Made by a program: the position numbers and the translations under genes. Source: Candidatus Omnitrophota bacterium (GTDB taxonomy: Bacteria; Omnitrophota; Gorgyraeia; Gygaellales; Profunditerraquicolaceae). From it: a stretch of DNA of 56,644 nucleotides. The notes under the pieces were generated by a model, which ran no database searches, was not told the DNA's origin, and worked only from the letters and a program-made list of their open reading frames with translations. The stretch is from positions 1 to 56,644 of the forward strand of contig JBAZGW010000002.1 of NCBI GenBank assembly GCA_041652635.1, given 5' to 3'. Shown here one piece after another: positions 5,483 to 46,762 of the stretch (position 1 is the stretch's first letter; every line of letters begins with the position of its first letter).

Positions 5483-5504
5483 ATTCCGCATTTTTCCGTC
5501 TACG

Positions 5505-15552: not shown

Positions 15553-15692
15553 TTGTCCTCCTTTTTTAAACGATTTATTACGCGTGACGGCGCAGGCGGT
15601 CCAACTACTGTTAATAGACGGTAGGAATAGCTTAAATCTAACACCTTTTTTATCCTGGTCGCCGGTTTGGAGGAGGGTATGCCAGAAAGTTC

Positions 15693-15721
15693 TTGCTTTT
15701 TACCCGGCGTGTTTATATAAT
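15693..15721 (+). promoter_or_regulatory. sigma70-type promoter
   Basis: TTGCTT (15693-98), a 17-nt spacer, then TATAAT (15716-21). The 'TTG start' of track ORF 15693 is this -35 box. Confidence 0.55.
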
Positions 15722-15758
15722 TTTAACAGGAAAATGCCGGAAGGCAGAGAGAGAGCGT

Positions 15759-17719: not shown

Positions 17720-18679
17720 ATGAACGGGCTCGCCTTTGAAAAACCGATTATCGAGTTGGAGAAGAAAATAGATGAATTGAAGCTTTTCGCCTCCGAGAAA
17801 AAGATAGATTTGTCCTCTGAGTTGAAGAAAATGGAGGAAAAGCTCGAAGCCTTGAAACGCCGCACTTACGGCAACCTGACCCCCTGGCAGAAAGTGCAGA
17901 TAGCCAGGCATCCGCAGCGTCCATATACGCTGGACTATATTTCTTCGTTAATGACCGACTTTGTGGAATTGCACGGGGACAGGATCTTTGGGGATGATAA
18001 AGCGATGATCTGCGGTTTCGCCGTGTTCGAAGGGACGAAAGTAGCTGTTATCGGGCACCAGAAGGGAAGGGATACCAAAGAGAACTTAAAACGCAATTTC
18101 GGTTGCGCCCACCCGGAAGGCTACCGTAAGGCGCTGCGTTTAATGCAGATGGCGGAGAAATTCGGTTTACCGGTGATAATTTTCATAGATACTCCCGGAG
18201 CTTACCCGGGTATAGGCGCGGAAGAGCGAGGTCAGGCTCAGGCGATAGCGTTGAACTTGCGGGAGATGGTTTGCATCGGCGTGCCGATAATAGCCACTGT
18301 TATTGGAGAAGGCGGTTCCGGAGGCGCTTTAGGAATCGGCGTGGCCGATATGGTTTGCGTCTTGGAGAACGCGTATTATTCCGTGATCTCTCCGGAAGGC
18401 TGTGCCGCTATACTTTGGAAAGACGGTTTAAAGGCGCCGGATGCCGCTGAAGTGCTGAAATTAACGGCAACGGATTTATTAAAACTGGGCGTAATAGATT
18501 GCGTGATCCCCGAACCGATGGGGGGAGCGCACCGCAATCCTCAGGAAACCGCCGCGAATGTCAAACAAGCGGTCGGCGGATACCTTAAAAAGCTTCTTAA
18601 ACTGGATAAAAAAACGCTTCTTGATTCCAGATATGATAAATTCCGCAAGATAGGAAAGATCCTGGAAGAGAAGAATTAA
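17720..18679 (+). CDS. accA: Acetyl-CoA carboxylase carboxyltransferase alpha subunit
   Basis: 319 aa. '[21 protein letters not shown]' and '[17 protein letters not shown]' are typical of AccA. Confidence 0.93.
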
Positions 18680-19149: not shown

Positions 19150-19845
19150 ATGTCTAAAAAGTCAGAGAAGATCCTATCGCTTTATGAAGTCTACGCCTTA
19201 AAACGCGGCGGTAATCCCGATAAGCCTTTCGCTCCCGGAGTACTGAATGCCGACCTGGAAGCGCGTTCCTATCAGGAGATGGTGGAAATATTCGAAGACA
19301 GGATAAACAGGTGGTATTTCAACGTGGCGGAAGAAATACAGCATAAGATAGCCGATTATAATTTCGCCGTTGTCATACTCTGCAGCACTATTCTGGACCT
19401 GATGAGTCAGTATGTTTATGCCGTGCCGGTTTCAGGAGAATCAGTGTTCAAGAAATTCTTCCGGGAGTATCTCGGAGAATACAATTACGTTATAGACCCT
19501 CCGATAATCAGCTGTTATTTCAATAAGAGGCGCAAGAAATGGCTTAAAGAGACGATCAAGGATGTCGCGGACGGCTTCTACCATTGCTTTCGCTGCGGTG
19601 TGGTGCATTCGGCCGGCATCCTTGAATACGGCCGCATAAGCACGCGTTATCCCGACGAGATCGTCAGGATAGTCGAATGGGGGAACGGGAAAAAGGAGAT
19701 CAACGTTAATCCGGTGGAGTTCCTGCTGCGTTTAAAAGAGATCTTCGCCGATTATGTGCGCAGGCTGAAGGAAGAAGAGTTCCTGCCCAAGAAAAACTTT
19801 ATCGAGAAGTTCAGATTGGAATACGGGGTGAATGTTCCGGAGTGA
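19150..19845 (+). CDS. Hypothetical protein (231 aa)
   Basis: Intact ORF after a 470-bp non-coding stretch. Contains 'HCFRCGVVHS'. No family recognised. Confidence 0.55.
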   Translation: MSKKSEKILSLYEVYALKRGGNPDKPFAPGVLNADLEARSYQEMVEIFEDRINRWYFNVAEEIQHKIADYNFAVVILCSTILDLMSQYVYAVPVSGESVFKKFFREYLGEYNYVIDPPIISCYFNKRRKKWLKETIKDVADGFYHCFRCGVVHSAGILEYGRISTRYPDEIVRIVEWGNGKKEINVNPVEFLLRLKEIFADYVRRLKEEEFLPKKNFIEKFRLEYGVNVPE

Positions 19846-19865
19846 TCCCGATGAAGGAGGAGGAT

Positions 19866-20120
19866 ATGCGTAAAGATCTGCTTGTGGTGTTGATAGGCAG
19901 CCGGGTCAGGAAGGCTCTGCCGGTGCAGGAGATATTGACCAGGTACGGCTGTATCGTGAAAACCAGGCTGGGGATACACGACGCGGGTAAGAACGGGTGT
20001 GCCGATACAGGGCTCATTATTCTGGAATTGATCCCCCAGGGACCGCGGATAAAGAAACTAAAAAAAGAGCTGGATGCGCTCCCGGGAGTAAAAGCTCAAT
20101 TGGTAACTATTTCTGTCTGA
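19866..20120 (+). CDS. Small ACT/NikR-C-like domain protein (resembles the TM1266 'iron-only hydrogenase system regulator' family)
   Basis: 'LLVVLIGSRV...VQEILTRYGCIVKTRLGIH...GLIILELI...LKKELDALPGVKAQLV' has the beta-alpha-beta-beta-alpha-beta layout of that family, judged from memory. The ATG at 19866 follows AAGGAGGAGG. Alternative starts are 19842 and 19851. Confidence 0.45.
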   Translation: MRKDLLVVLIGSRVRKALPVQEILTRYGCIVKTRLGIHDAGKNGCADTGLIILELIPQGPRIKKLKKELDALPGVKAQLVTISV

Positions 20121-20139
20121 AAAACAACCGGTATTATCC

Positions 20140-20168
20140 TTGACAGGAACGGGATGTTTTTATAAAAT
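20140..20168 (+). promoter_or_regulatory. sigma70-type promoter of the PKS operon
   Basis: TTGACA (20140-45), a 17-nt spacer, then TAAAAT (20163-68), in the 148-bp gap before the first operon gene. Confidence 0.55.
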
Positions 20169-20268
20169 ATTAATAACGGCCCGATAATATACCGCGCCTG
20201 TAGGACGGTAGAACACGGGCCGATATTCCCTTCTGCCGCAGCGCTTATACGTTTTACGCAGTCTGCGA

Positions 20269-20577
20269 ATGAGGGTTTTTTCTTATAAGCTTATGATCTG
20301 GGATATCTCCACTGAAATTAAATTCAAATCTGTAATTGCCAGGCTGCCTGTTTTTCACAGACGGATAGCCGAAGAATCCGTGATAAAAAAAGCGCAGAGC
20401 AACGCTTTAGAGCGCAAGTCGGCGCGGGTCGAAGAAGCGGACGTAATAAGCGCGTTTTTCAGCGAGGTCCCGCTGGCATTCTACAGTATGATGATCCGTG
20501 CTTTGGAGCAGAGCGGATTTGATTACAATAAATACGGGTTCCCTTTGAAGAATGCCGGGCAACGGGTAAATAAATGA
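20269..20577 (+). CDS. PCP_red-like small protein (protochlorophyllide reductase subunit-B C-terminal-like domain)
   Basis: 'WDISTEIKFKSVIARLPVFHRRIAEESVIKKAQSNALERKSARVEEADV' matches the W-x-EA-x-L-x-IP-x-FVR pattern of PF08369, from memory. Alternative start at 20293. Confidence 0.5.
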   Translation: MRVFSYKLMIWDISTEIKFKSVIARLPVFHRRIAEESVIKKAQSNALERKSARVEEADVISAFFSEVPLAFYSMMIRALEQSGFDYNKYGFPLKNAGQRVNK

Positions 20578-21578
20578 AGGTAGCGGTGATCGGGGCCGGC
20601 GCGATCGGTGGCCTATGCGCCGCCTATCTTAAGCTTGCCGGTAAAGACGTTACTCTTGTCGTCAGGCCTCCCGGCGTCGGGATTCTGGCGAAAAACGGTT
20701 TATCCGTCAGCGGGGTGCGCGGAGAGAGAAATGTCGGCGTCCCGGTTGTCGAGAGAGTGGATTTTCTTCCCGATATATGCATAGTCGCCGTAAAAACCCA
20801 GGATATAGAAGAAGCGGCCGCAGGTAATCCTGAAGCTTTACGGGCAGAAACTGTTATTACCACGCAGAACGGACTGCGGGCGGAGGAAATGCTTCTGCGT
20901 TATTCCGCTCCGGATAAGATAGTATCCGGCATCGTTATGTTCGGGGCGACTTCTTTCGAACTCGGCAGGGTCGTCCATAACTTTGAAGGCAGTTTTATCA
21001 TAGGCGGTTATTCCGGCGGCCGCGGGAGGAGTCTTGCCCGTGCGGAAGAATTGTTGTCGGGTGCGTTTCCGGTAAGTCCGGCGGACAATATAAAAGGGAT
21101 GAAATTATTAAAGGTGTTTCTTAACGCTAATAATTGTATCCCGGCCATACTGGGAACGACTATGCAGGAAGCGTTCAGCGACCTGCGCATCTGCGGGTTA
21201 AGCGCAGCCATTTGGAAAGAAGGCTGGCGGGTGGTTATGGATGCCGGACTGAAACCGGAATCACTGCCGGATTTTCCGGTTGAACGCGTTTCCGGACTGA
21301 CGGCAATGCCTTTAGAAAGGGCAGCCGGTGTTTTTCACGGCATAATGGCCGGATTGAGCAAAGAGCCGCTTTTCGGGTCAATATTGCAAAGTATAAAAAG
21401 AGGCCGGACTACAGAAATAGATTATTTAAACGGCGAATTCGTGCGCATTGCCGCCTCGCGGGGAAGCAACGCCGGTCTTAATGAGGTGCTGGTGCGTATG
21501 GTGCACGATGTGGAACGCAGCGGCAGATTCTTCGCTAAAGAGGAATTACTCCGTGAGACAGCTTGTTTTTTACAATAA
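20574..21578 (+). CDS. Ketopantoate reductase (ApbA/PanE) family NAD(P)-dependent oxidoreductase
   Basis: N-terminal Rossmann 'MKVAVIGAGAIGG'. 334 aa. PanE-like C-terminal helical domain ('TEIDYLNGEFV'). ATGA overlap with the upstream gene. Confidence 0.75.
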   Translation: MKVAVIGAGAIGGLCAAYLKLAGKDVTLVVRPPGVGILAKNGLSVSGVRGERNVGVPVVERVDFLPDICIVAVKTQDIEEAAAGNPEALRAETVITTQNGLRAEEMLLRYSAPDKIVSGIVMFGATSFELGRVVHNFEGSFIIGGYSGGRGRSLARAEELLSGAFPVSPADNIKGMKLLKVFLNANNCIPAILGTTMQEAFSDLRICGLSAAIWKEGWRVVMDAGLKPESLPDFPVERVSGLTAMPLERAAGVFHGIMAGLSKEPLFGSILQSIKRGRTTEIDYLNGEFVRIAASRGSNAGLNEVLVRMVHDVERSGRFFAKEELLRETACFLQ

Positions 21579-21583
21579 CACTT

Positions 21584-22189
21584 ATGATAAAAACCCCATT
21601 CCCTAAATTAAAACTGACAGTCTTGAACATATACGGAGAATGTTATCACGGCTATAAACCCGGCGATGAGATCATTCTTGAAGATTTTACTCATCCCCCC
21701 GCGTATTTCTGCCTGGGACTGGCGCATGTATTGTTCCCTATTATCTATGCCTTGAGTTTCGGCGCCAGGTTCCCTTTTAGGGATAACCAGCGTTCGTTGC
21801 AGGTAACCTGTCCGGACGGCGGAAAAATGGAGTTCAAGGTGGAAATACTGGATAAGTCCGGAGCCGCGGAAACTCTCCCCAAGGACAATAGTTATTCAGG
21901 GCCGCACCCTAAGAAAATGACGATAGAAGTGGTTAAATCCAAAGGTAAGTGCACGTATGGATATAAAGTGGGCGATAAATTCGAAACTACCGGCTTAAAA
22001 TGTATCCCCGGTTTCTGCGGCGCGGCCTTCCATACCGCGTTCCCGGCACTCTTCGCTCTGAACTTCGGGGCGAAGTTCTTCTTTATGAACGATCCCGACG
22101 GCATAGACACGGTGACTTGCCCGGACGGGGGAAACATCGTATTTAAAGTTTCCCGCGCGCAGGGGCAGAAAGAGAATACGGCGGAATGA
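21584..22189 (+). CDS. Tandem-duplicated TIGR04076-like Cys-rich protein
   Basis: Two homologous halves, each with 'G(E/K)C.(H/Y)GYK.GD...', 'P..FC..A.H..FP...AL.FGA(R/K)F.F' and 'V(T)CPDGG...FKV'. ATG at 21584 preferred over TTG at 21563. Confidence 0.65.
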   Translation: MIKTPFPKLKLTVLNIYGECYHGYKPGDEIILEDFTHPPAYFCLGLAHVLFPIIYALSFGARFPFRDNQRSLQVTCPDGGKMEFKVEILDKSGAAETLPKDNSYSGPHPKKMTIEVVKSKGKCTYGYKVGDKFETTGLKCIPGFCGAAFHTAFPALFALNFGAKFFFMNDPDGIDTVTCPDGGNIVFKVSRAQGQKENTAE

Positions 22190-23450
22190 AGAATATTCGC
22201 AGGGTAGTGATAACAGGCATAGGCGTGGTCTCCCCGAACGGCATAGGTAAAGATCCCGTCTGGGATGCCATGTCCGGAGGCAAGTCCGCGGTCAGGCTGG
22301 TGGATGAGTTCGACGTTTCCATCTTCAACACCAGGATCGCGGCGCAGGTAAGGATTTTGACCCGTTTAAACTGGGATTAAGCCATAGCGACGCCGTGCGC
22401 ATGGACAGATACGTGCAATTCGCGGTTGTCGCCGCCGATATGGCGGTCAAGGATAGTGGTTTGGATTTTTCCTCTCAGGATGTCGAGCGCTGCGGCGTGT
22501 GCCTGGCCAACGCTATTTGCGGCACAAAGTATATGGAGGAGGAATTCGTGCTTGTTACCGACAACGGCAGGAAGCCGATAGATCCTTCCCTTGTCCGTCC
22601 TGATCTTTACGATGCCGCTATGTTCAATACCCCCTCCATTGAATTATCCTATAAGTACGGGCTTAAAGGCGTATGTAACACCTTATCCACCGGGTGCACC
22701 GCGGGCACGGATTCTTTGGGGTTCGCTCTTGAGAGCATACAGGACGGCGAACACGATATTATGCTGGCGGGAGCGGCCGAGGCCCCGATCACACCCATAA
22801 CTTTCGGTTCTTTCGACGTAGTGAACGTGCTTTCTTCCAGGAACGACGCCCCGGAAAAGGCCAGCCGTCCTTTCGACGCAAAACGCGACGGCTTTGTCCT
22901 TTCCGAAGGGGCGGGTATACTGGTTCTGGAGGAAATGGAGCACGCCTTAAAGAGGAACGCGCGTATTTACGCGGAAGTGGCCGGTTTCGGGACCAGCTGC
23001 AACGCTTTTCATATGACAGATCTTCCGGCAGACGGGACCGCTATGGCCAATTGTATACAACTGGCGGTGAAAGACGCCGGGATCAAACCGCGTGATGTGG
23101 GCTATATCAACGCGCACGGTTCCTCCACCAGGATGAACGATATCTTCGAGACAAGCGCTTATAAAATGGTTTTCGGAGATTACGCGTATAAACTCCCGAT
23201 GAGCTCCTTGAAATCGATGATCGGGCATCCTTTGGCCGCCGCCAATGCCATAGAACTGGCGGTCTGCTCCATGATTTTCGAGAAGAATATTCTTCCTCCG
23301 ACGATCAACCAGGAGGAACGGGATCCGCTTTGCGATCTGGATTATATACCGAATCAGGCGCGGCAGAAGAAAGTCGACGTGATACTCAAGACCAGCAGCG
23401 GTTTTTCCGGCATACATTCGTCGCTGGTCCTACGCAGGTTCGAGGGATAG
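22186..23450 (+). CDS. Type II PKS ketosynthase alpha (KS-alpha), interrupted by a 1-nt frameshift near 22350
   Basis: The N-terminal 55 aa (22186..22350) and the body (frame of 22395..23450) join seamlessly as '...IAAQV|KDFDPFKLGLSHSDAVRMDRYVQF...' if one base is added or re-read at 22350. Catalytic Cys in 'LSTGCTAGTDS' (22695-97) and His in 'NAHGSST' and 'MIGHPL'. 'NAFHMTDLPADG' and 'DPLCDLDYIP' resemble act/tcm KS-alpha, from memory. Confidence 0.85.
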
Positions 23451-23451
23451 A

Positions 23452-24681
23452 ATGAAAAGCATCGCTGTTACAGGAATAGGCGTGGTTGCCCCTTCCGGCA
23501 TAGGCAGGAGGCAGTTCTGGGCGAATATCAAGTCCGGGAGGTCTTTCGTCAGAGAGATAACGCGTTTCGACGCTTCCAAGTATCCTTCCCGCATCGCGGG
23601 GCAGATAGATGATCTAGATAAATACAGCCATGTGTCGGAAAGGCTGTTGAAAAAAATAGACGCGTTTTCCCATATGGCCCTGGTTGCTTCCGAACTGGCC
23701 TTGCAGGAAGCAGGCATAGACATAAAAAAAGAGGATCCGGACCGGGTGGGGATCTTTCTGGGCAACGCCATCGGCGGCTGGCTGTATGCGGAAACCGAAT
23801 TGCGCGATCTCTATCTGGAAGGAAGAGAAGGCGTGTCCCCTTATATGGCGTCCGCGTGGTTCCCGGCCGCTCCCCAGGGACAAGTTTCCATTTATTACGG
23901 GATAAAAGGTTTCAGTAAAACGGTGGTGGCGGACAGGGCCGGTTCTTTGATGGCCATCGGTTACGCCCGTAAAACCCTTTCCAAAGAAAAACTTGATATT
24001 ATCCTCGCCGGCGGCATGGAAGCACCCGTTACGCCTTACGCGCTGCTTTGCTGTAATACTTACGGCGGTATCTGCACGGAGAATAAGGATCCGGCCGCGG
24101 CATACCGTCCGTTCGACAAGAGCAGGGCCGGATTTGTAGTCGGAGAGGGCGCCGCCATCATGGTTATGGAAGAACTTGAACGCGCCAGGCAAAGAGGCGC
24201 GAAAGTGATGGGGACGATAACCGGATACGGCACCAGCTGCGACGGAGTGGACAGGATAAATCCGGACAACTCCGGTTTACAGTTGAGCCGGGCCATAAAA
24301 ACAGCGCTTCAGGATGCCGGTATCTGTCCTGCGGATATAGATTATATAAGCTTAGACGGGATGGCGGACGACGCCTGGGATTACGGGGAAGCGGACGCCA
24401 TCAAGAGGGTTTTCGGCGCCAAGGCCGGGGATATCCCGGTGAGTTGCCCGAAGTCGATGTTCGGCAACCTGCTGGGCGCTTCCGGGGCTTTGGATGTGAT
24501 CATCGCCCTGCTTGCTATGGAGCACTCGTTGATCCCGCCCACATTGAATTTAAATGACCCTGATCCCGCATGGTTGAATTATGTTAAAGATAAAGCGTTG
24601 GAGAGAAGAGTGGATAAGGCCCTGGTCATTTCCCGCGGCAGGGGGGGGATCAATTCAGCGTTGGTCATAGAAAGAGCATAA
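23452..24681 (+). CDS. KS-beta / chain-length-factor-like ketosynthase paralogue (catalytically inactive)
   Basis: KS fold, but the active-site Cys position reads 'VVADRAGS' (Arg162). The His positions read 'SLDGMADD' and 'MFGNLLG'. 'AWFPAAPQGQVSIYYG' resembles the CLF 'AWF...GQISI' block. It starts 1 nt after the KS-alpha stop. Confidence 0.8.
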   Translation: MKSIAVTGIGVVAPSGIGRRQFWANIKSGRSFVREITRFDASKYPSRIAGQIDDLDKYSHVSERLLKKIDAFSHMALVASELALQEAGIDIKKEDPDRVGIFLGNAIGGWLYAETELRDLYLEGREGVSPYMASAWFPAAPQGQVSIYYGIKGFSKTVVADRAGSLMAIGYARKTLSKEKLDIILAGGMEAPVTPYALLCCNTYGGICTENKDPAAAYRPFDKSRAGFVVGEGAAIMVMEELERARQRGAKVMGTITGYGTSCDGVDRINPDNSGLQLSRAIKTALQDAGICPADIDYISLDGMADDAWDYGEADAIKRVFGAKAGDIPVSCPKSMFGNLLGASGALDVIIALLAMEHSLIPPTLNLNDPDPAWLNYVKDKALERRVDKALVISRGRGGINSALVIERA

Positions 24682-24709
24682 GCACATTCTTTAGATAAGG
24701 AGGCTTACC

Positions 24710-26170
24710 GTGAAGATAATGTTTGTAATGCCGAAAGTCGGGTCATGGGCTACACATGGAAAACATATCGGACCGAACCAGCTTTACGCGCATTGGGCGG
24801 CGTATGTAAGGGAAAAAGGATATTCCGACCTGGAAGTGCTCGATTGTAAGGCGTTGGACATAGAGACGGAAGAAATGCTGGCGAAGATCAAAAAGAGCAA
24901 TCCCGACCTGTTGGTGCTGGGTGATATGCTGCATTCTTACGGCGGGTATGGGATCATCGCCCATTTTAATCAGGCGGCGCGGCTGATCAAGGAAGCCCTT
25001 CCCAGGGTAAAGATCGTGTTCGGCGGCCTGTGGTATTCCGCCATGCCGGTGCCGACGCTTGAAGATAACCCCGCGGTTGATTTCGTGGTGATGGGAGAGG
25101 AAGAGTCTTTCTATGACCTGGTCGACGCTATCGCCAAAAACAAGGATATTAAAGGTGTGGCCGGTGTTACATCGCGCGCAGGCGGCGAGATAATCATGGG
25201 GCCGCACAAAAAGCTGCTTGAAGATCTGGACAGCCTGCCCTTGCCGGCCTACGACCTGTTCCCTATGGATAAATACGTTGGGCACACGTATTGGAAACCG
25301 TTCGTGGAAATGGTCACTTCCAGAGGATGCCCTTCAGCCTGCACATTCTGTTATGAATGGGATCAGTATGATCCCCGGTCGCCTTCCGATTTCCTGAAAT
25401 GGCGCGCCAAGTCCCCGGAACGCGTGATAGAAGAACTGGAGTTGTTACACAAGAAATACGGGGTTAAGGTCGTGGTGATCCAGGACGACAATTTTAACGT
25501 GAACCCGGAGCGTGTAAAGAAATTCTGCGAACTGAAACTTCAGAAAGAGATCCCGGTAAAATGGGTCTCTTTAGGCAGGGCGGTCGACTGGGTGAACTGC
25601 GAGGAAATATTGCCGTTGATGAAGAAGTCGGGGCTATTCACCGGGGTGTTCGGCATCGAAGTCACTACCCCCGATGAACTGAAGAAGATAGCCAAAGGTA
25701 TCACTATAGCCCAGATCAAGAAAACCATAGAAATACTGCGCCGTAACGAGATCGCCGTGGTCGCCGATATAATGATGGGATTCGACTACGACGACGAGAA
25801 AATAATCAAGCAGAGGTATGAATTCACCGATGAAGTGGATCCGGACATCCTCTGGATAGGTTATGTGACCCCCGCGCCGAATTCTCCGATGTGGCGGATC
25901 GCGCTTAAAAATAACTGGATAGATCCGCGGAAGATAAATTTCAGTCAGTGGGACTTCCTGCACCCAGTGATCCCGACGGATCATCTCAGCAAAGAGGATG
26001 TGGGCAGGCTGGGATCGTGGTGTATGCGTGAATTCTTCTCTAAACCGGGGAGGATCAACAGGATCATGGAAAGCGACTTCGATATCCTGGCCAAATTGTG
26101 TTTCCAGGACGTTATGGCAGGCGTGGGAAAATGGGAGGCCGGTGCCACAAAAGGCGAAGTGCATATTTGA
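24710..26170 (+). CDS. B12-binding domain radical SAM enzyme
   Basis: N-terminal cobalamin-binding-like domain, then 'SRGCPSACTFC' (CxxxCxxC). 486 aa. GTG start after AAGGAGG. Confidence 0.8.
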   Translation: MKIMFVMPKVGSWATHGKHIGPNQLYAHWAAYVREKGYSDLEVLDCKALDIETEEMLAKIKKSNPDLLVLGDMLHSYGGYGIIAHFNQAARLIKEALPRVKIVFGGLWYSAMPVPTLEDNPAVDFVVMGEEESFYDLVDAIAKNKDIKGVAGVTSRAGGEIIMGPHKKLLEDLDSLPLPAYDLFPMDKYVGHTYWKPFVEMVTSRGCPSACTFCYEWDQYDPRSPSDFLKWRAKSPERVIEELELLHKKYGVKVVVIQDDNFNVNPERVKKFCELKLQKEIPVKWVSLGRAVDWVNCEEILPLMKKSGLFTGVFGIEVTTPDELKKIAKGITIAQIKKTIEILRRNEIAVVADIMMGFDYDDEKIIKQRYEFTDEVDPDILWIGYVTPAPNSPMWRIALKNNWIDPRKINFSQWDFLHPVIPTDHLSKEDVGRLGSWCMREFFSKPGRINRIMESDFDILAKLCFQDVMAGVGKWEAGATKGEVHI

Positions 26171-26189
26171 AGGCAGGGAAGGAAGTGTT

Positions 26190-26423
26190 ATGGATACTAA
26201 AGACAGGATAAAGAAAGTGTTTGTTGATCTTTTGCGGCTCAAGCCCGGGGAATTGAAAGAGGGTGTGAAACTTTACGACAGCATAGGCGTGGACTCCACC
26301 GAAATGGTGGAGGCGGTGATCGCCCTGGAGAAGGAATTCCGGGTTAAACTCAGCCTCAAGGAGATAACGAAGTTCTCTACTTTGGAGGATATCGAGAAAG
26401 TAATATCCGCCAAGAGCGCATAA
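26190..26423 (+). CDS. Acyl carrier protein
   Basis: 77 aa. 'LYDSIGVDSTEMVEAVIALEKEF' carries the DS phosphopantetheine-attachment serine. ATG at 26190 follows GGAAGGAAG. Confidence 0.8.
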   Translation: MDTKDRIKKVFVDLLRLKPGELKEGVKLYDSIGVDSTEMVEAVIALEKEFRVKLSLKEITKFSTLEDIEKVISAKSA

Positions 26424-26425
26424 CG

Positions 26426-27229
26426 ATGAGAATCGTAGACCTTAGCATCCCGATCGATGACCGTGCCCCGGAAGCGCACCCTTTCTGGATAGAGAGACTT
26501 GGCCATAAAAAGGGAGTGGAGCATTTGAACTGGGTGATGATGAAGAAGAGCCTTAGCGGTAAACTGGCTTTTCTTTTAGGCCGCAGGATCATTAAGCCGG
26601 GAGCGCTTCCCGACGGTGAATTCCTCTCTTTGGAGACCGTGCATGCCCCGGTGCATACCGGCACTCACCTCGATTTCACCTTCCATTACGGCACTGCTTC
26701 TGAAGGAAAACCGTCGCGTTATTCGGACGAGATCCCCCTGGAATGGTGTTTCTCCGAGGGGATAGTGCTGGATTTTACCGGTAAGGAGCCGGGAGGGGCC
26801 ATCACGCGCGAAGATATGCGGACGGCACTGGATAAGGCCGGCTGCGGTCTTAAACCGGGCGTTATCGTACTCTTAAGGACCGGAGCCGATAAGTATTTCG
26901 GCTCTGTTGAATACCTTCATCGTTATCCGGGAGTCAGCCCGCAGGCTATTGAATTCCTGATTGAACAGGGAGTAAAAATCATAGGCATAGATACCCTGGG
27001 GTTTGACCGGCCGTATAAATATATGATGGCGGATTTTATCCGCACGGGTGACGCGGGAATGCTCTGGCCGGCGCATTTTTACGGACGGAAAAAAGAATAC
27101 GCGCATATAGAAAGACTTTCCAATCTGGATAAACTGCCGGCTTGCGGTTTCAAAGTCGCGTGCTTCCCGGTGAAGATCCGCAATACCGGAGCCGCGTGGG
27201 CAAGAGTGGTGGCGATACTTGAAGATTAG
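26426..27229 (+). CDS. Metal-dependent cyclase family protein (PF04199, kynurenine-formamidase/DpsY-like)
   Basis: 'VHTGTHLDFTFH' matches the HxGTHxDxPxH metal-binding motif. 267 aa. Confidence 0.75.
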   Translation: MRIVDLSIPIDDRAPEAHPFWIERLGHKKGVEHLNWVMMKKSLSGKLAFLLGRRIIKPGALPDGEFLSLETVHAPVHTGTHLDFTFHYGTASEGKPSRYSDEIPLEWCFSEGIVLDFTGKEPGGAITREDMRTALDKAGCGLKPGVIVLLRTGADKYFGSVEYLHRYPGVSPQAIEFLIEQGVKIIGIDTLGFDRPYKYMMADFIRTGDAGMLWPAHFYGRKKEYAHIERLSNLDKLPACGFKVACFPVKIRNTGAAWARVVAILED

Positions 27230-27498
27230 GAAAGGTACTGCTCCGCATGAAGCTGCGCAGGATGTTTCGCAGGATAAATTTGCCTGCCACGGATTAAATA
27301 TTCTCCTGTTGTAAGTACAAGTGGGATTTTTGTTCTTGTTATGATAATAGCGGGAAACTCATTGTCCCGATCGCAAACGCTGCGTAAATCTCTATAGGGA
27401 GATTTACTTGCAGCTCTCGGGATCAATTCGCGCAAATAACTTATGTTCGCGCCTTACGGGCGCTCCATAAGTTATGCGCTCATTGAGGAGGCTGTAAA

Positions 27499-27939
27499 AT
27501 GGGGCATACGGTTAATTCCATAATCATCGACGCGCCGTACGATAAAGTATTCGATATTTCCAACGACATCCCGCGCTGGACGGAATTATTCGGCGGGGAA
27601 TACAGCAAGGCGGAGATAGTAAACAGGGAAGGCGACAGGATCACCTTCAGGCTCACAGATGATGAAGGGAAAAGCTGGACTTCCTGGCGGTTATTGATGA
27701 AGGAACAGGGTTTTGCTTATGCGGAAAGGCAGGAACCGCAGTTCCCTTTCAAATATATGAAGATCATTTGGCTGTATACCAGCAAGCCTCAGGGGATCGA
27801 ATTAAGCTGGATACAGCATTTCGAAATGGATCCGGCGGCTAAATTCAACGATACCCAAGTCGAGGGGTTCATTAATACACATTCCAAAGAGAATCTGCAG
27901 ATATTCAAGAAAGTGATCGAAAAAGAATCAGGAAAGTGA
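27499..27939 (+). CDS. SRPBCC-fold polyketide aromatase/cyclase (TcmN/WhiE ARO/CYC-like)
   Basis: 146 aa. 'HTVNSIIIDAPYDKVFDISNDIPRWTELFGGEYSKAEIV...W.SWR...F.YM...W.Y.......ELSWIQHFEMDP' is collinear with my recollection of the TcmN N-terminal domain. Confidence 0.7.
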   Translation: MGHTVNSIIIDAPYDKVFDISNDIPRWTELFGGEYSKAEIVNREGDRITFRLTDDEGKSWTSWRLLMKEQGFAYAERQEPQFPFKYMKIIWLYTSKPQGIELSWIQHFEMDPAAKFNDTQVEGFINTHSKENLQIFKKVIEKESGK

Positions 27940-29078
27940 GAAGCGGATTATTCGTTCTCCTTTGCGCCGGCGGGGCGGTCCTTTCGTTCAATGTGGCCGC
28001 AGCTGCCGCATTGATCCCTTCTATTGCCTCTGAATTCACGCTATCCCAGTTCACCGCGGGAAAGATCATCTGGCTGTATATGCTGCCTTACGGCATATCC
28101 GCTTTGTTTTACGGGCCGTTGATACGCAGCTACGGCCCAAAAAAGATAGAATCCGCCTGCCTTTTTATCTTTTCTTTAGCCAATCTTATCGCCGCCTTGT
28201 GTCAGTCGTTCGATCAATTATGTATGGCGAGGTTATTGGCCGGGATTTCCGGTGCATCCATCACGCCTTTGGCAATTATTATGGTGTCCCGCCGCGCTCC
28301 CAGGGAAGAAAGAGGGAAATATATAGGTTTGTTTTTCAGCAGTACCTTTGTTTCTTCCCTGGCAGGATTGTTCTTAAGCGGAATTTTACCGTGGCGCAGT
28401 ATTTTTCTTATTCCGGCGATCGCCGGCTTCGCGCTCCTGGCCCCCGTATGCTTATATTTACCGGAAGGATCGCCGGGCAGGGAAAGATTCCGGATGGGAT
28501 ATTTTATCGTATTGAAATATAAGAGAGTTTCCGGGATATGCGTTTATATTGCCGTGATCAGTTTTCTATATCACGGCGTACAGCAATGGCTGGGGGTTTA
28601 TTTTTCAAGCGCGTTACACCTGCGCCAGTTAGAAATAAGTTTTCTGATGACGTTGACCGGACTAAGCGGCATTCCCGGAGAAGCATTGGGAGGCAGGTTT
28701 TCCGACCATGCCGGCAGGCGCAGCGCGGCCAACTCCGGGGTATTATTAATGACGGCGGGCCTTTTTATTCTCGCTTTGTATCCCGGCACCGTGTTGTTGA
28801 GCGTGAGTATGCTTATTTGGGGGTTTGGCTGGGCCTTTAACCATGCCGGAGTCTCTACTTTATTGGCGGATCTGCCTCCATCGGTATTGAATGAAGCGGC
28901 CGGTCTTAACAGCAGTCTGCGTTTTCTTTCAGGAGGGGCCGGCGTCCTGGCAGGAGATTTGCTCTTGCGCAGAAGCTTTATAGCCGGGTTTCTCTTCTTC
29001 GGTACAGCATTATTGATCTTTGTTTCTATGTCTTACAAACTGTTGCGAGAAAAGAAAATTCCCGCGATTTATACCTGA
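27936..29078 (+). CDS. MFS transporter
   Basis: 380 aa and hydrophobic throughout, with about 12 predicted helices. GTGA overlap with the upstream gene. Confidence 0.75.
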   Translation: MRSGLFVLLCAGGAVLSFNVAAAAALIPSIASEFTLSQFTAGKIIWLYMLPYGISALFYGPLIRSYGPKKIESACLFIFSLANLIAALCQSFDQLCMARLLAGISGASITPLAIIMVSRRAPREERGKYIGLFFSSTFVSSLAGLFLSGILPWRSIFLIPAIAGFALLAPVCLYLPEGSPGRERFRMGYFIVLKYKRVSGICVYIAVISFLYHGVQQWLGVYFSSALHLRQLEISFLMTLTGLSGIPGEALGGRFSDHAGRRSAANSGVLLMTAGLFILALYPGTVLLSVSMLIWGFGWAFNHAGVSTLLADLPPSVLNEAAGLNSSLRFLSGGAGVLAGDLLLRRSFIAGFLFFGTALLIFVSMSYKLLREKKIPAIYT

Positions 29079-30223
29079 CCGGTAATCGCTCGCGGTATAG
29101 TTTTTACTCTTGCGGAAATAAGGATACCGCTGATCAGCCACCAGATGAAGGATACTTGAGGAAGGAAGAAAGTGAAATCGGTAAGATTATGCACCAGGAA
29201 AACCGCCCAGGAGCAAAAAATAAGCGAATAAAGGTTGTCACCGGTGCTGCGTATGTATTTGCAGGCTTTCCATCCCGTATCGATAACGAACCATAAAAAA
29301 GCGGATAGACCCGGGATGCCCAGTTCGCACCAGAGTTGCAGGAAAAGATTGTGGGCGAAAGAAGAAATAGAACCCGTGCAGTTGCCGGGGCCGGTGCCTA
29401 AGACCGGAGAGGTTTTAATAATGGATATTATCTCTTTCCAGTAGATGAGGCGGGCCTGGAATGAGAATAAGGGGGATTGGTTACCCGTTGTCGCGCGTAA
29501 AATGAAAACAGCCGCTGCCAGGGCGAAAAGACTGAATAACACGGATAGAGAGTGTTTTTTCAGCTTGTGCCTTGACAGAGCGAAAAAGAGTATTGCTCCG
29601 CAGAAAAGAGAAAATATCGCTCCCAGGGATTTTGTCAGCAAAAGCGCTGGAATCATCATCAGCAGCGGCAACCAAGCGGTTTCCCTGCGGAGTAAGCGTA
29701 AAGGTATGACGATTGCCAGGAAGCCGCCAAGGGCGTTAGCTGTCACGAAAGGCGCGAAGATGCGCCTGGATCCTATGTAATCGCGAGCGATACTCGAGTT
29801 TATTCCATTGGCGGTAAGATATTCCGATAAATGCCGGAATCCGTAAAAGTATTGATATAAAGATAGAACCGCTATTCCCGTGCCGGCGGCGGTAATTACC
29901 TCAAGCATCGTTAATGATCTTGGCCGATCCATCATCGACGCCAGCAGATACGCGGAGAAACAGGCCAGTTGGTTTATAATCAGGTTAATGCCGTTTACAT
30001 TTCCGATAAGCGCCGAGGGAAGCATCGTAATGGTGAGTATCGCGGCTGGTAAGAAATAAGTGAGCCCATCTCCCGGACTTTCGCGTTTATTCAGCAGCAA
30101 ACGGCATAATAATACGCATAAACAAATCAACAGCAAGTTAAGATATATCTCTCCTGCCGCGGGAAATGCCTCGGGAGAAATGAAAGGCCTTAAAAAGATT
30201 AATGTTAGGAATGCCGTAGTCAT
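29069..30223 (-). CDS. O-antigen ligase / polymerase (Wzy_C) family membrane protein
   Basis: Polytopic membrane protein. 'SFAHNLFLQLWCELGIPGL' matches the Wzy_C core. The 3' end overlaps the MFS gene by 10 nt in convergent orientation. Confidence 0.7.
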   Translation of the reverse strand: MTTAFLTLIFLRPFISPEAFPAAGEIYLNLLLICLCVLLCRLLLNKRESPGDGLTYFLPAAILTITMLPSALIGNVNGINLIINQLACFSAYLLASMMDRPRSLTMLEVITAAGTGIAVLSLYQYFYGFRHLSEYLTANGINSSIARDYIGSRRIFAPFVTANALGGFLAIVIPLRLLRRETAWLPLLMMIPALLLTKSLGAIFSLFCGAILFFALSRHKLKKHSLSVLFSLFALAAAVFILRATTGNQSPLFSFQARLIYWKEIISIIKTSPVLGTGPGNCTGSISSFAHNLFLQLWCELGIPGLSAFLWFVIDTGWKACKYIRSTGDNLYSLIFCSWAVFLVHNLTDFTFFLPQVSFIWWLISGILISARVKTIPRAITGQV

Positions 30224-30326: not shown

Positions 30327-31474
30327 ATGCCCTCTTTGCCTAAACTGATGGTTTTTAGTTCCGGCGCCTGTATGTATGGCGCGGAAAAAGGGTTGATAAA
30401 TCTTTGCGCCGCCCTGGATGACCGGTTTGAGATCACCGTAATATTGCCGGATAACGGTCCGCTGGCGGAGATACTGAAAAAACGCGGATACCGGGTAAGG
30501 CGGCATCCGCTCGCAGTCCTATCTTCCGGTCAGTCTCTTCCCCGAATGGCCCGGTATTTATTACTGTCCTCGGTCAATACATTGTATACTGTGATTTACG
30601 CTGTCTTATGCGGCTATGACTGTATTGTGGCCAACACGTTGTTGTTATTGCCGCCGTTGCTTGCTGCCCGGTTATGCGGGAAGAAACATATCTGGTTCTT
30701 TAGGGAATACACCCCGTCTTTTCGCGTCAATCGTTTTTTATCCCGGTTAGCATTGATCTTCTCCGACAGGATAATTTGTATGTCCGAGAACATAAGAGAG
30801 GAAATGTTCGGCGACATGGAATGGGGAGGGGAAAAGACGGCGGTGATCCACGAACCCTTACCGTTCTTCTCCGCGCGACAGGCCCGTCCGGAACCCTTGC
30901 GCCGGGAGCTCGCTATTACTCGGTCGGAGGTAATTATATTGTTGCCGGCCAGAATACACCCCTCTAAAGGGCAACTGGAGTTCCTACGCGATTACGCGGG
31001 AATATTGAGAAAGCACGAGGTTATGGTTTTAATGGCCGGAGATTGTTCTGCCGCCGTTCCCAGAAGCGTAGTTTATATGGAGGAGATCAGGCGGTTTATA
31101 AACAAGGGCGGACTGAAAGATCGTGTTACCCTGCTGGGTTTCCGGGAAGACATAGATACGTTGTTGCGCTTTGCGATATTTGCGTTTTTCCGATTTTGAG
31201 GAATGAACCGTTCGGAATAGCTTTCCAGGAGGCATTGTCTTGCGGGAAACGGACGTTGTATTATTCCAGTAAGGGACTTGAAGAAGCCGCCTCTTTCTTT
31301 AACGGACATAAAGCGGTTAAATTGGACTCTGTTTCTTTAGAGTTAGCGATAACTTCCGCTTTGTCTTTGCGCGCTGCGGTTGCCCCGGATTACGAAGGAC
31401 GCGCGATCGTTTCCAGTCGTATTTACCGTGAAGGCATCCTGCGTATTGTTACCAGCGGGAGTCGGCGCTCATAA
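30327..31474 (+). pseudogene. GT4 (GT-B) glycosyltransferase broken by a 1-nt frameshift near 31166
   Basis: Frame A (30327..31199) carries the N-terminal half up to 'DRVTLLGFREDIDTLL'. Frame C (track ORF 31043..31474) continues 'ALCDICVFPILRNEPFGIAFQEALSCG', the GT4 E-x7-E region. Confidence 0.7.
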
Positions 31475-31644: not shown

Positions 31645-32634
31645 ATGAAAAAAGTAGGATTAACTTACGATTTAAAGACTGATTACGAATTCAGGGAGGG
31701 CGATCCCCCGGACGCTAACGCGGAGTTCGACCATCCTTCCACGATAGACGTTTTGGTCAAAGCCATTGAGTCACAGGGATATAAAGTCGAGAAGATCGGC
31801 AATGTATCTTCTTTGTTGGAAAGAAGGAACGATCTCGACGTGGATATAGTTTTCAATATTTCGGAAGGCGCGCAGGGCAGGAACCGGGAGTCTCAGGTGC
31901 CGATGCTGCTTGAAATATCCGGGATCCCCTATGTGGGCGCGGATGCCTTGACCTTAGGCTTGACGCTGGATAAGGTCATGGCCAAGAAGATCTTCATGGC
32001 CGACGGGATTCCGACCCCCAATTCAATAGAGATCAAAGATCCGGCATCCATATTGGAGATAGACCATTTGCGTTTCCCGTTGATCGTGAAACCGAGGTTT
32101 GAAGGTTCTTCAAAAGGCTTGAGCGAAAGTTCCCGGGTGGAGAATCCTGAGGAACTCAAGAAACAGGCCGAATATATCCTGAATACTTATCATCAGCCGG
32201 CGCTGGTGGAAGAATTCGTTTCCGGGCAGGAATTTACCGTGGCCGTTGTAGGCAACGATCCGGTGGAAGTTCTGCCGGCCGTTCAGGTAAAGATAGACGG
32301 CAGGGTGAAATTGAACAATAAATTCTATACTTTCAGCAGGATCGCTTCCGACAGGGTGGAGTATATCTGCCCGGCGCGCATCAGCCAGGAACTTGAGAAA
32401 GAGCTCGGGGAATTGGCGTTAAAGACTTATATGGCAGTGGATTGTCGCGATTTCGGGAGGGTGGATTTCCGCGTAGACCCTGCCGGCCGTCCTTTCGTCC
32501 TGGAAATTAATCCGTTGCCTTCATTGTCCACGGCCGATGTTTTTCCCCTTGTGGCGGAAGCCAGCGGGATTTCTTACGAACAGATCGTGGGAAAGATACT
32601 TAGTGTCGCCTTGAAAAGGTATGGTCTGGAATAA
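31645..32634 (+). CDS. D-alanine--D-alanine ligase family ATP-grasp enzyme (paralogue 1)
   Basis: 329 aa. 'LIVKPRFEGSSKG', 'LVEEFVSGQEFTVAVVGN' and 'VLEINPLPSL' are ATP-grasp/Ddl-like blocks. Confidence 0.8.
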   Translation: MKKVGLTYDLKTDYEFREGDPPDANAEFDHPSTIDVLVKAIESQGYKVEKIGNVSSLLERRNDLDVDIVFNISEGAQGRNRESQVPMLLEISGIPYVGADALTLGLTLDKVMAKKIFMADGIPTPNSIEIKDPASILEIDHLRFPLIVKPRFEGSSKGLSESSRVENPEELKKQAEYILNTYHQPALVEEFVSGQEFTVAVVGNDPVEVLPAVQVKIDGRVKLNNKFYTFSRIASDRVEYICPARISQELEKELGELALKTYMAVDCRDFGRVDFRVDPAGRPFVLEINPLPSLSTADVFPLVAEASGISYEQIVGKILSVALKRYGLE

Positions 32635-32635
32635 T

Positions 32636-33634
32636 ATGGATATCGCACTGACGTATAATTTGAAGGAAAAAGACGAGTCGAAACCGCCGGACTATTTTTC
32701 CGAGTTTGATTCGCAGGAAACCATAGACGCGATCACCTCCGCCCTCCGGAAAAAAGGCCACAATGTCCTCCCAATAGAAGCAGGCAGTTCCAATCTTTTA
32801 TCATATTTCAGAAAGAACCGCGTCGATATGGTGTTTAATATCGCTGAAGGACGCTCCGGAAGGTACCGTGAATCGGAAATTCCGGCTATCCTCGACTGCC
32901 TGAATATACCATACACCGGTTCCGGCACGTTCGCGTTGGCGCTGGCTTTAAATAAATCAGCTACCAAGAAGATACTTAAAGCGGAAGATATACCCACCCC
33001 GCGTTCGCAGTTGTTCTCCCGCGGTAATGAGAAAGTGGATCCGGCGTTGAAATTCCCGTTGATCGTTAAACCGAACTTCGAGGGTTCCGCTAAAGGCATA
33101 GCTTCTTCCAATGTTGTCGCTACGCTGGAAGAATTATACGCGAGGGTCAAGGAATTGAATAAGATCTACAAGCAACCCATTCTCGCCGAAGAATTCATAA
33201 ACGGCAAGGAACTCACCGTTGGTGTGCTGGAGAACGGGAGCACGATAATCCTGCCGATACTTGAGATAGACTTTTCGGAATGCTCCGGCAGCGGAGAATT
33301 TTTTTATTCCTGGAAAATGAAAGAATTCCAGGGCAATAAGGAAATGGGGCTCCTCCCGCATTTTTATTGTCCGGCCAGGCTTGATAAAAACACGGAACGT
33401 TTAGTGAAAGAGACCGCTTTGAAAACTCACCGTGCGGTAGGCTGTTTCGATATATCCCGTACGGATATCAGGTTGAGCGAGGACGGCGTGCCTTATGTCC
33501 TGGAGATCAACCCTTTACCCGGATTAAACCCTAAGGATTCCAACTTTCCGATCATGGCATACGCAGCCGGTATGCAGTATGAAGATTTGATTGAAACGAT
33601 CTTACTGGGCGCCTTTAAAAGAAGGAGAGGGTAA
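32636..33634 (+). CDS. D-alanine--D-alanine ligase family ATP-grasp enzyme (paralogue 2)
   Basis: Collinear with paralogue 1 ('LIVKPNFEGSAKG', 'LAEEFINGKELTVGVLEN', 'VLEINPLPGL'). The ATG at 32636 is 2 nt after the upstream stop. Confidence 0.8.
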   Translation: MDIALTYNLKEKDESKPPDYFSEFDSQETIDAITSALRKKGHNVLPIEAGSSNLLSYFRKNRVDMVFNIAEGRSGRYRESEIPAILDCLNIPYTGSGTFALALALNKSATKKILKAEDIPTPRSQLFSRGNEKVDPALKFPLIVKPNFEGSAKGIASSNVVATLEELYARVKELNKIYKQPILAEEFINGKELTVGVLENGSTIILPILEIDFSECSGSGEFFYSWKMKEFQGNKEMGLLPHFYCPARLDKNTERLVKETALKTHRAVGCFDISRTDIRLSEDGVPYVLEINPLPGLNPKDSNFPIMAYAAGMQYEDLIETILLGAFKRRRG

Positions 33635-33635
33635 A

Positions 33636-40409: not shown

Positions 40410-40533
40410 ATTTAGTAGGGTTTTTTAGTAATGATTCTTTTCTTTGGAATCAGCATATTAGGGTAAGATAGCCTCTGATCATGCCAGAGAGGCATGCCGG
40501 TGTTGTTTTTTGCGCAATTAACTATCCGCAGCG

Positions 40534-45473: not shown

Positions 45474-45555
45474 ATTGCCCCTTTCTTTGGTCTGTGAATA
45501 ATTAACCTTTCGAGTTAACTCATTGAATTAGTTTAACATAAACAGGGAGTATTGC

Positions 45556-46733: not shown

Positions 46734-46762
46734 TTGTTCCTCCCTTCAAGTAAAATCATTAT

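Follow-up and report, generated by a model that had tools for sequence, protein, structure and literature searches.

A probable aromatic (type II) polyketide synthase operon conserved across Candidatus Omnitrophota

Background

Nearly all known aromatic polyketides come from aerobic actinomycetes, in which tailoring is carried out by oxygenases. Type II polyketide synthases (PKSs) have also been described outside the actinomycetes, strict anaerobes included (PMC7693217; PMC5321127), and the arrangement 'KS-CLF-ACP-TcmN-OxyN', which joins a ketosynthase (KS), a chain-length factor (CLF), an acyl carrier protein (ACP) and two types of cyclase, is regarded as the ancestral architecture of these non-actinomycete systems (PMC7693217). 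A 2023 catalogue of 6,322 KS-CLF pairs places Candidatus Omnitrophica among 14 phyla, with no further analysis (PMC10132072), and the main genomics paper on Omnitrophota contains no mention of polyketide, secondary metabolite, ketoacyl or radical SAM (S-adenosylmethionine) (PMC10066038). The locus described here comprises ten co-directional, close-packed genes at positions 20269-29078 (+ strand) of a 56,644-nt stretch of DNA, hereafter the window, from contig JBAZGW010000002.1 (GCA_041652635.1) of Candidatus Omnitrophota.

These ten genes (Table 1) probably form an aromatic (type II) PKS operon, one that belongs to an early-branching non-actinomycete lineage together with the systems of Clostridium beijerinckii/C. 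puniceum, Ktedonobacter and Bacillus bombysepticus. A sequence-only reading of the same DNA had proposed a complete aromatic PKS cluster in a setting that does not look actinomycete, and had stressed the rarity of such a find. The setting is borne out both by the host and by the neighbouring genes described below. The system is indeed a non-actinomycete type II PKS, but a less exotic one than supposed, as clostrubin and the dendrubins have been characterised and Omnitrophica KS-CLF pairs had already been catalogued.

Comparison with described type II polyketide synthases

Among clusters of organisms whose product is known (clostrubin), the nearest is the type II PKS locus of C. beijerinckii/C. 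puniceum (L103), which, judging from species and CLF, is probably the published clr cluster. It shares with the window the KS-alpha (44% identity), the CLF (41%), the PF04199 cyclase (47%) and a monodomain TcmN-type aromatase/cyclase (ARO/CYC; 39%), as well as an ACP, TIGR04076 domains and an anaerobic host, and its Amidohydro_2 protein is 33% identical to the Omnitrophota orthologue. Its CLF has W109 and an Asp-Arg pair replacing Glu-Gln. The clostridial locus possesses no B12-radical SAM enzyme, ApbA-like reductase or small DUF2621-like protein, and contains in addition phosphopantetheinyl transferases (PPTases), KSIII, CMD, DUF362, DUF169 and hydrolases. TIGR04076 occurs there as a single, ACP-fused domain, whereas in Omnitrophota it is tandem and free-standing: right after the clostridial CLF a TIGR04076-like N-terminal domain is fused to the ACP, and a second TIGR04076-like gene stands free (11260-11787 and 15656-15946 of L103). 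The clostridial locus is found in few species, whereas the Omnitrophota operon recurs across the phylum.

The den, ant and pcy clusters resemble the window in combining a minimal PKS with TcmN-type and OxyN-type cyclases, in having no in-cluster oxygenase or methyltransferase, and in their non-actinomycete hosts. AntD of the ant cluster, from Photorhabdus, is the second-best Protein Data Bank (PDB) match of the window KS-alpha (388.6 bits). In these clusters TcmN is duplicated (didomain), whereas the window protein has a single domain, an arrangement shared with the clostridial and resistomycin-type systems, and none of the three clusters has been reported with a B12-radical SAM enzyme, TIGR04076 or ApbA.

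The actinomycete act, tcm and whiE systems, together with plasmid-borne Streptomyces loci (L088, L090 and L091), are 45-48% identical to the window in KS-alpha and 39-41% in CLF. They share with it the STGC motif, the CLF block 'AWF..GQ(I/V)SI' and an ARO/CYC homologous to TcmN and WhiE-ORFVI. Their CLFs possess Gln at the Cys position, in contrast to Arg in the window CLF, and their O2-dependent ABM/FAD oxygenases, TcmI-type cyclases and FabG-type C9 ketoreductases have no counterpart in the window operon.

The ketosynthase pair

Relatives of KS-alpha were collected by scanning one genome per GTDB species, which gave 362 matches; the best 80 loci by KS-alpha similarity were fetched and compared by tblastn of every window protein. 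After repair of the frameshift described below, the window KS-alpha is a 421-aa protein, 100% identical to a database protein of a Candidatus Omnitrophota metagenome-assembled genome (MAG). Its best PDB match, ahead of AntD, is actinorhodin KS-alpha (398.5 bits), and FabFs score at most 357.7 bits. It possesses the STGC motif and a Cys-His-His triad (C171, H311 and H348) that is invariant in 80/80 orthologues. In KS-beta the corresponding positions are occupied by R162, D302 and N339, invariant in 75 orthologues, and the protein carries the CLF block 'AWF...GQVSI'; residue numbering was verified on 1tqy_B (act CLF Q161). The sequence-only reading was therefore right in describing one KS with an intact triad and a paralogue without any of the three catalytic residues. 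Only 1 nt separates the KS-alpha stop codon from the KS-beta start, and on the evidence of their sequences the two are predicted to be translationally coupled, with the CLF catalytically dead.

Phylogenetic trees were built by neighbour-joining from annotated reference clusters and FabF, FabB and NodE sequences. In both trees KS-alpha falls inside the KS-alpha clade (bootstrap 91 and 94) and KS-beta inside the CLF clade (100 and 100), as the sequence-only reading had expected, rather than with FabF or FabB. Five of the six annotated FabFs are separate from both KS clades; the sixth (Priestia) stands alone in the second tree, just outside a poorly supported node, and no FabF groups with the window proteins. 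When the KS proteins were compared with 72,556 plasmids by tblastn, type II PKS KS-alpha genes ranked top for KS-alpha. For KS-beta, the second KS of the B. bombysepticus type II PKS ranked first (42.7%), followed by dozens of Streptomyces/Pseudonocardia genes annotated by PGAP as 'ketosynthase chain-length factor' (39-41%), before every FabF. The gate residues of the CLF (act F109/T112/F116) are W/A/L in the window, Ktedonobacter and B. bombysepticus, and W/G/L in C. beijerinckii.

Three other assignments were rejected. A FabF or fatty acid synthase identity is suggested by the best NCBIfam models, but the scores lie below the cut-off and the trees place both proteins in PKS clades. For a highly reducing or polyene type II PKS, Iga11 (6kxd) scores just 238 and 159 bits, below FabF, and for the cispentacin AmcF type the score is 153 bits against a cut-off of 325.

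Cyclases and acyl carrier protein

The 146-aa SRPBCC protein matches TcmN ARO/CYC (PDB 2rez, 1.1e-27) and WhiE ARO/CYC (5.5e-24) over its full length, its PDB matches ranging from 1e-27 to 1e-23. The pocket of TcmN is lined by W28, Y35, W65, S67, R69, R82, M91, W95, W108, Q110 and N136. Equivalents of all eleven residues are present in the window protein; across 54 orthologues nine positions are invariant, and Lys replaces R69 in one protein and R82 in five.

The PF04199 protein occupies the OxyN place of the 'KS-CLF-ACP-TcmN-OxyN' architecture (PMC7693217) and shares 47% identity with the cyclases encoded in the type II PKS loci of C. beijerinckii and B. bombysepticus; among solved structures it is closest to isatin hydrolases. 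The metal motif HxGTHxDxxxH is invariant in 57 orthologues. Relative to HxGTHxDxPxH, the His, Gly, Thr, His, Asp and His residues are all retained and the Pro position is occupied by Thr or Ser. The Ser of the ACP lies in GVDSTEM, a motif that matches the ACP part of the TIGR04076-ACP fusion protein of C. beijerinckii. The earlier assignments of a TcmN/WhiE-like ARO/CYC, a PF04199 metal cyclase and a GVDSTEM-bearing ACP thus all stand.

Distribution and conservation in Omnitrophota

Of the best 80 loci, all but fourteen belong to MAGs whose titles read Omnitrophota or Omnitrophica; the fourteen are labelled 'uncultured Planctomycetales' (ten), Planctomycetales (one), plain 'bacterium' (two) and 'uncultured Thermodesulfobacteriota' (one). 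These fourteen labels are read as misassignments, because KS-alpha is 77-84% identical and the gene order is the same. The 80 loci keep the gene order as far as the contigs reach, with one rearranged (L075). The order begins with the small protein, ApbA, tandem TIGR04076, KS-alpha, CLF, radical SAM enzyme, ACP, cyclase and ARO/CYC, and continues with (MFS, the major facilitator superfamily transporter), SDR (short-chain dehydrogenase/reductase), (CBM_11-like), a small open reading frame (ORF) and Amidohydro_2. In 32 other loci accA, usually followed by padR, lies at most 10 kb upstream, a neighbourhood that may reflect a link to malonyl-CoA supply. The window is without the SDR, the CBM_11-like gene, the small ORF and Amidohydro_2, both at the locus and throughout its 56.6 kb.

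Median identity to the window is 80% for KS-alpha, 79% for the radical SAM enzyme, 78% for tandem TIGR04076, 75% for ARO/CYC, 74% for the CLF, 73% for the housekeeping protein AccA and 51% for MFS. The SDR orthologues, with a median identity of 85% to the copy in L003, are the most conserved of all, yet the gene does not occur at the window locus. SDR, KS-alpha and the radical SAM enzyme are the most conserved members, whereas MFS is the least conserved and often missing, being detected in only 31 related loci, and many loci run straight on into SDR. KS and AccA pairwise distances are correlated (Mantel r 0.62-0.69, p<=0.001), and the KS distances are smaller on average, a rate comparison biased by the fact that the 80 loci are the most KS-alpha-similar of the 362. 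GC content is uniform across the operon region and the same as in the flanks. From these comparisons the operon looks vertically inherited under strong constraint, and this constraint, together with recurrence across the phylum, suggests that the product is probably physiological rather than a sporadic antibiotic.

The best PDB matches of the relatives' Amidohydro_2 are aromatic-acid decarboxylases, namely LigW (2.7e-20) and gamma-resorcylate decarboxylase. The relatives' SDR was also considered as an act-type C9 ketoreductase; its best PDB matches, at about 1e-30, are clavaldehyde dehydrogenase and generic enzymes of the FabG type, which allow no specific assignment.

Accessory proteins

The radical SAM enzyme has the same B12-binding plus radical SAM architecture as BchE and HpnJ, its best-scoring curated families, but the scores are far below the cut-offs: 211 bits against 481 for BchE (TIGR02026) and 152 against 578 for HpnJ. 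The window offers no bacteriochlorophyll or hopanoid context, so the substrate must differ. Among solved structures the enzyme is closest to the methyltransferase TokK and the dehydratase AprD4. The CxxxCxxC motif is invariant in 63 orthologues. The gene lies between CLF and ACP in nearly every long-enough Omnitrophota locus, the exceptions being the rearranged L075 and L082, in which it was not detected.

Three genes upstream of the KS pair, which form part of the conserved unit, had been omitted from the gene set of the sequence-only reading, whose listed genes are all real. One encodes the tandem TIGR04076 protein, in which three Cys and a His are invariant per repeat over 79 orthologues; TIGR04076 has received only two mentions in the literature, both incidental. 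Another encodes an ApbA/PanE-like protein (PF02558, 1.5e-28; PF08546, 5e-13) that scores 156.8 bits with TIGR00745, above the cut-off of 141. Its gene is kept beside the KS pair in Omnitrophota, in the delta-type locus L101 and in L104. The third, upstream of ApbA in 68 related loci, encodes the small first protein of the unit, for which sub-threshold matches to PF11084 (DUF2621) were found in three orthologues (E 1e-4 to 6.5e-6), along with one weak PCP_red match (E 0.0035) in the L105 orthologue; PCP_red would pair with a BchE-like enzyme.

Relatives outside Omnitrophota

Relatives in other groups were sought with the CLF as query in an exhaustive HMMER search of 50%-identity representatives, after which the clusters were looked up. 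The nearest CLFs are those of 'Deltaproteobacteria bacterium' MAGs (57%), the MAG lineage of L104/L105 (48%), Archangium (43%), C. beijerinckii/C. puniceum (42%) and Ktedonobacter racemifer (40%). L101, from a 'Deltaproteobacteria' MAG, encodes a B12-radical SAM enzyme (52%), located upstream, tandem TIGR04076 (55%) and KS-alpha (65%), and holds in addition ApbA, CLF, ACP, cyclase, ARO/CYC, MFS and Amidohydro_2, together with two tungsten-type AFOR genes (4851-6824 and 14177-16156) and a FAD oxidase. In L104/L105 the PKS and both cyclases are accompanied by ApbA, Amidohydro_2, an FMN reductase, FAD oxidases and TIGR04076 in the form of two separate genes.

Two further observations concern these loci. 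AFOR genes in the non-Omnitrophota versions (L101, and L105 at 1222-3093) are a further candidate for strictly anaerobic tailoring. PNP_UDP_1 and IF-2B genes lie downstream of the cluster in L101 (18447-21242, with a class II aldolase), L005 (19824-21263) and L003 (20681-21263); this set resembles the dihydroxyacetone phosphate (DHAP) shunt, which salvages the 5'-deoxyadenosine that radical SAM enzymes release as a by-product.

The KS-alpha frameshift

In the window KS-alpha is broken by a 1-nt deletion at 22349, and a continuous KS is restored by reading on in the other frame. KS-alpha is intact in two independent assemblies, GCA_049293575.1 (contig JBAQBM010000030.1, L001) and a Logan assembly of SRR28062479 (L002), which are 99.96-99.97% identical to the window over 17-21 kb. 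The window departs from both at the same seven positions (18847, 22349, 26000, 27319, 27322, 27324 and 31165), with two 1-nt deletions (22349 and 31165) and five substitutions. The substitution at 26000 replaces a Leu of the radical SAM enzyme by Val, and three others (27319, 27322 and 27324) lie inside the 269-nt spacer. The deletion at 31165 splits a GT4-family glycosyltransferase gene (30327-31474, + strand), which encodes 382 aa in L001, into ORFs of 290 and 143 aa. The KS-alpha frameshift is private to the window sequence, either as a sequence-level artefact or as a strain-private lesion.

Proposed pathway and significance

In the proposed pathway, KS-alpha/CLF would iteratively condense malonyl-ACP into an unreduced poly-beta-keto chain, with loading via housekeeping FabD and PPTase. 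Since the window contains neither a malonyl-CoA:ACP transacylase (MCAT) nor a PPTase, the operon would depend on housekeeping enzymes; many type II clusters likewise contain neither. From the CLF gate residues a chain of about C18-C20 is weakly expected. The TcmN-type cyclase would close and aromatise the first ring (C9-C14 type) and the PF04199 cyclase would close later rings. In most relatives the LigW-like Amidohydro_2 would remove a terminal carboxylate, a step proposed for dendrubin and pyxidicycline intermediates (PMC7693217), and the SDR would reduce a carbonyl; both are missing from the window. The ApbA-like reductase, the tandem TIGR04076 protein and the BchE/HpnJ-like B12-radical SAM enzyme may provide oxygen-independent tailoring. 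The radical SAM step would be either C-methylation or a BchE-style water-dependent oxidation of an unactivated carbon, and the latter would replace O2-dependent anthrone/ring oxygenases. TIGR04076 most likely acts on an ACP-bound intermediate, the strongest clue being its fusion to ACP in Clostridium. The MFS pump would export the product in the window's genome.

A bolder proposal goes beyond the assignment as an aromatic PKS: the operon could be a phylum-wide, vertically inherited, oxygen-independent route to a physiologically required aromatic metabolite, for example a quinone-like redox carrier or head group, in which the radical SAM enzyme replaces oxygenases and TIGR04076 is a PKS accessory domain acting on the ACP-bound chain. 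In this full form it is unlikely to be correct. Many Omnitrophota possess a polyprenyltransferase but no chorismate lyase and no known source of an aromatic head group (Seymour et al., PMC10066038), which gives a speculative lead to a quinone-like product.

The operon places a type II PKS in an uncultured, largely anaerobic phylum, with core enzymes more conserved than housekeeping AccA under the sampling described above. The existence of such clusters will not surprise specialists; what is new is the constraint across the phylum, the link between TIGR04076 and ACP, and the radical SAM tailoring. No paper was found in the literature on a conserved link of this PKS lineage with B12-radical SAM, ApbA and TIGR04076, or on its conservation across the phylum. 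The locus makes testable the oxygen-free tailoring of aromatic polyketides and whether a 'secondary' pathway has a core role in Omnitrophota, a phylum without cultured members whose bacteria may live as predators or parasites. It also provides a functional context for the uncharacterised TIGR04076 and adds a deep-branching lineage to reconstructions of KS/CLF evolution.

Evaluation of alternative explanations

Several points weigh against an aromatic PKS. The whole operon family is known from sequence only, and in the window itself KS-alpha is frameshifted and MCAT, PPTase, ketoreductase and decarboxylase are missing. Both KS trees are distance-based and hold 28-37 sequences, and the comparison with AccA carries the bias already mentioned. 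The best NCBIfam models for both KS proteins are FabF (TIGR03150: 403 bits for the partial KS-alpha and 375 bits for KS-beta, both below the cut-off of 493.75), and the top PDB scores of KS-beta are those of FabFs (289 bits), compared with 269.5 for act CLF. The CLF is without the Gln of actinomycete CLFs (act CLF Q161) and has Arg162 instead. Asp-Arg at this position is also found in the CLFs of C. beijerinckii, Ktedonobacter racemifer, Archangium, Azospirillum and B. bombysepticus, so that Arg is a lineage trait of non-actinomycete CLFs and no sign of lost function, and Gln is peculiar to those of actinomycetes. The radical SAM enzyme reaches none of the curated cut-offs, which makes its chemistry a guess, and a Foldseek search of the PDB with the AF2 model of the TIGR04076 protein (pLDDT 78) gave no match at E<=0.001. 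Finally, antiSMASH 'ladderane' calls have been reported for Omnitrophota MAGs from the Cariaco Basin (PMC9902471), which may or may not be this locus.

These biosynthetic gene cluster calls also favour a specialised lipid pathway, resembling that of anammox ladderanes and not aromatic, in which a FabF-derived heterodimer acts with a B12-radical SAM enzyme and a dedicated ACP. The anammox ladderane cluster does have a KS heterodimer in which one subunit is inactive, its own ACP, B12/radical SAM chemistry and an anaerobic host (layout in bioRxiv 10.64898/2026.05.19.726425), and the FabF models and the frequent accA neighbour fit a lipid as well. It possesses no aromatic cyclases, however, whereas the window operon encodes two, with conserved active sites, and relatives add the LigW-like aromatic-acid decarboxylase. 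Both KS proteins lie in the KS-alpha and CLF clades, and their scores against 9s5h_B/C, two KS chains of one PDB entry presumed to be the anammox heterodimer, are 288/210 and 221/192 bits, lower than those against act KS/CLF or FabF. The radical SAM enzyme reaches 78 bits with TIGR04072, for which the cut-off is 360, and the operon is without a dehydratase or enoyl reductase. A lipid pathway is accordingly judged highly improbable, the least probable of the alternatives. That the cluster is instead an ordinary, horizontally acquired one, whose exported product is an antibiotic or toxin without a particular role in physiology, is considered very unlikely. The MFS exporter within the operon is consistent with it, as are the related operons in another phylum, the closest plasmid-borne relative being on a Bacillus plasmid, and the antibiotic nature of the characterised relatives clostrubin and dendrubins (PMC7693217, PMC5321127). 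Against it stand synteny in essentially all 80 species-level loci fetched, KS divergence that tracks AccA's and is less than it, GC content equal to that of the flanks, and the contrast between a variable, often absent MFS and the strongly conserved SDR, KS-alpha and radical SAM enzyme. Decay of the cluster in the window's genome, with a real KS-alpha frameshift, loss of the tail from SDR to decarboxylase and no product, is somewhat easier to argue and still quite unlikely. The split KS-alpha, the second deletion in the nearby glycosyltransferase gene, and the absence of the four tail genes of most relatives, where an opposite-strand Wzy_C gene is in place, are what decay would leave. Both broken genes are intact in the two independent assemblies from the same population, however, and the identical set of seven differences from each of them indicates errors or variants on the side of the window. 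The remaining cluster genes are full length with intact catalytic motifs, and the tail genes lost from the locus may still exist elsewhere in the genome.

Operon layout and neighbouring genes

All the genes named by the sequence-only reading, the MFS gene included, were recovered on the + strand by ORF listing and domain scans. Its count of eleven is corrected to ten, the difference probably arising because the frameshift splits KS-alpha into two ORFs. The close packing that it described is accurate, with ATGA/GTGA overlaps at 20574/20577, 22186/22189 and 27936/27939 and other gaps of 1-28 nt, as is the single long spacer, which lies between cyclase and ARO/CYC. The two hairpins in this spacer have 9-bp and 10-bp stems (27384-27407 and 27436-27475), and the second stops 11 nt before the GAGGAGG ribosome-binding site of ARO/CYC; the matching gap is just 12-54 nt in L003 and L005. 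The proposed promoter, TTGACA-N17-TAAAAT, is present and is the best of its region, but such sites are no commoner than chance, 10 being found in 19800-29400 against 10.0 expected from shuffled sequence, so that it is a plausible promoter candidate. Rfam detected only a tRNA (331-405) in the window and no riboswitch, cobalamin riboswitch included, upstream of the operon.

No homologue of FabD, FabH, PPTase, SDR, oxygenase or Amidohydro_2 was detected in the full 56.6-kb window, in agreement with the earlier statement that SDR, malonyl-CoA:ACP transacylase and oxygenase are absent. The description of the cluster as complete holds for the minimal PKS plus cyclases and fails for the SDR, the CBM_11-like gene, the small ORF and the LigW-like decarboxylase.

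Table 1. Features of the operon region, with positions in the window
Feature	Position	Strand	Evidence
AccA (acetyl-CoA carboxylase carboxyltransferase alpha), common upstream neighbour	17720..18679	+	Pfam ACCA in L001
Sigma70-like promoter candidate, TTGACA-N17-TAAAAT	20140..20168	+	11/12 match, best of region
Small DUF2621-like protein, 102 aa, first gene of conserved unit	20269..20577	+	sub-threshold PF11084 matches
ApbA/PanE-family NAD(P)H oxidoreductase, 334 aa	20574..21578	+	PF02558, PF08546, TIGR00745
Tandem TIGR04076 protein, two ~90-aa Cys/His-rich repeats	21584..22189	+	TIGR04076 1.4e-29, two stretches
KS-alpha, split into ORFs 22186-22380 and 22395-23450	22186..23450	+	PF00109/PF02801
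KS-beta/chain-length factor (CLF), 409 aa	23452..24681	+	PF00109/PF02801, CLF clade
B12-binding radical SAM enzyme, 486 aa, BchE/HpnJ-like	24710..26170	+	PF02310 + PF04055
Acyl carrier protein (ACP), 77 aa	26190..26423	+	PF00550 9.6e-8
PF04199 metal-dependent cyclase, predicted 'OxyN-type' second cyclase	26426..27229	+	PF04199 2.5e-31
269-nt spacer with two perfect hairpins	27230..27498	none	
Monodomain TcmN/WhiE-type aromatase/cyclase (ARO/CYC), SRPBCC, 146 aa	27499..27939	+	PF10604/PF03364, 2rez
MFS transporter, 380 aa, variable operon member	27936..29078	+	MFS_1 1.9e-44

The remainder of the window contains the housekeeping genes for PurH, MnmE, FolE, a Mur ligase and AccA, together with two AcrB-type pumps, an HlyD protein, an OEP-TonB_C fusion and a Wzy_C protein. 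Immediately upstream of the operon, 19842-20120 (+) encodes a 92-aa CPF_0552-family protein (92.5 bits, above the cut-off), distantly TM1266-like, and ends 20 nt before the promoter candidate. This gene and the preceding 231-aa ORF stand where most relatives carry a PadR regulator. Downstream, 31645-34823 (+) contains two tandem D-Ala-D-Ala-ligase-like ATP-grasp genes followed by a lysine-2,3-aminomutase-like radical SAM gene, which may form a small beta-amino-acid or peptide-ligation module. The two AcrB-family pumps are adjacent at 37149-44595 (-), and the second, of 1353 aa, extends about 300 residues past its ACR_tran match. The OEP-TonB_C protein (49026-50876, -; 616 aa) is an unusual fusion of an N-terminal TonB_C with an OEP/TolC domain. 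Three consecutive ORFs of 268, 304 and 625 aa at 44667-48640 (-) have no Pfam match; they lie in or beside a stretch at about 47000-53000 where GC content is 0.40-0.44, compared with about 0.49 elsewhere.

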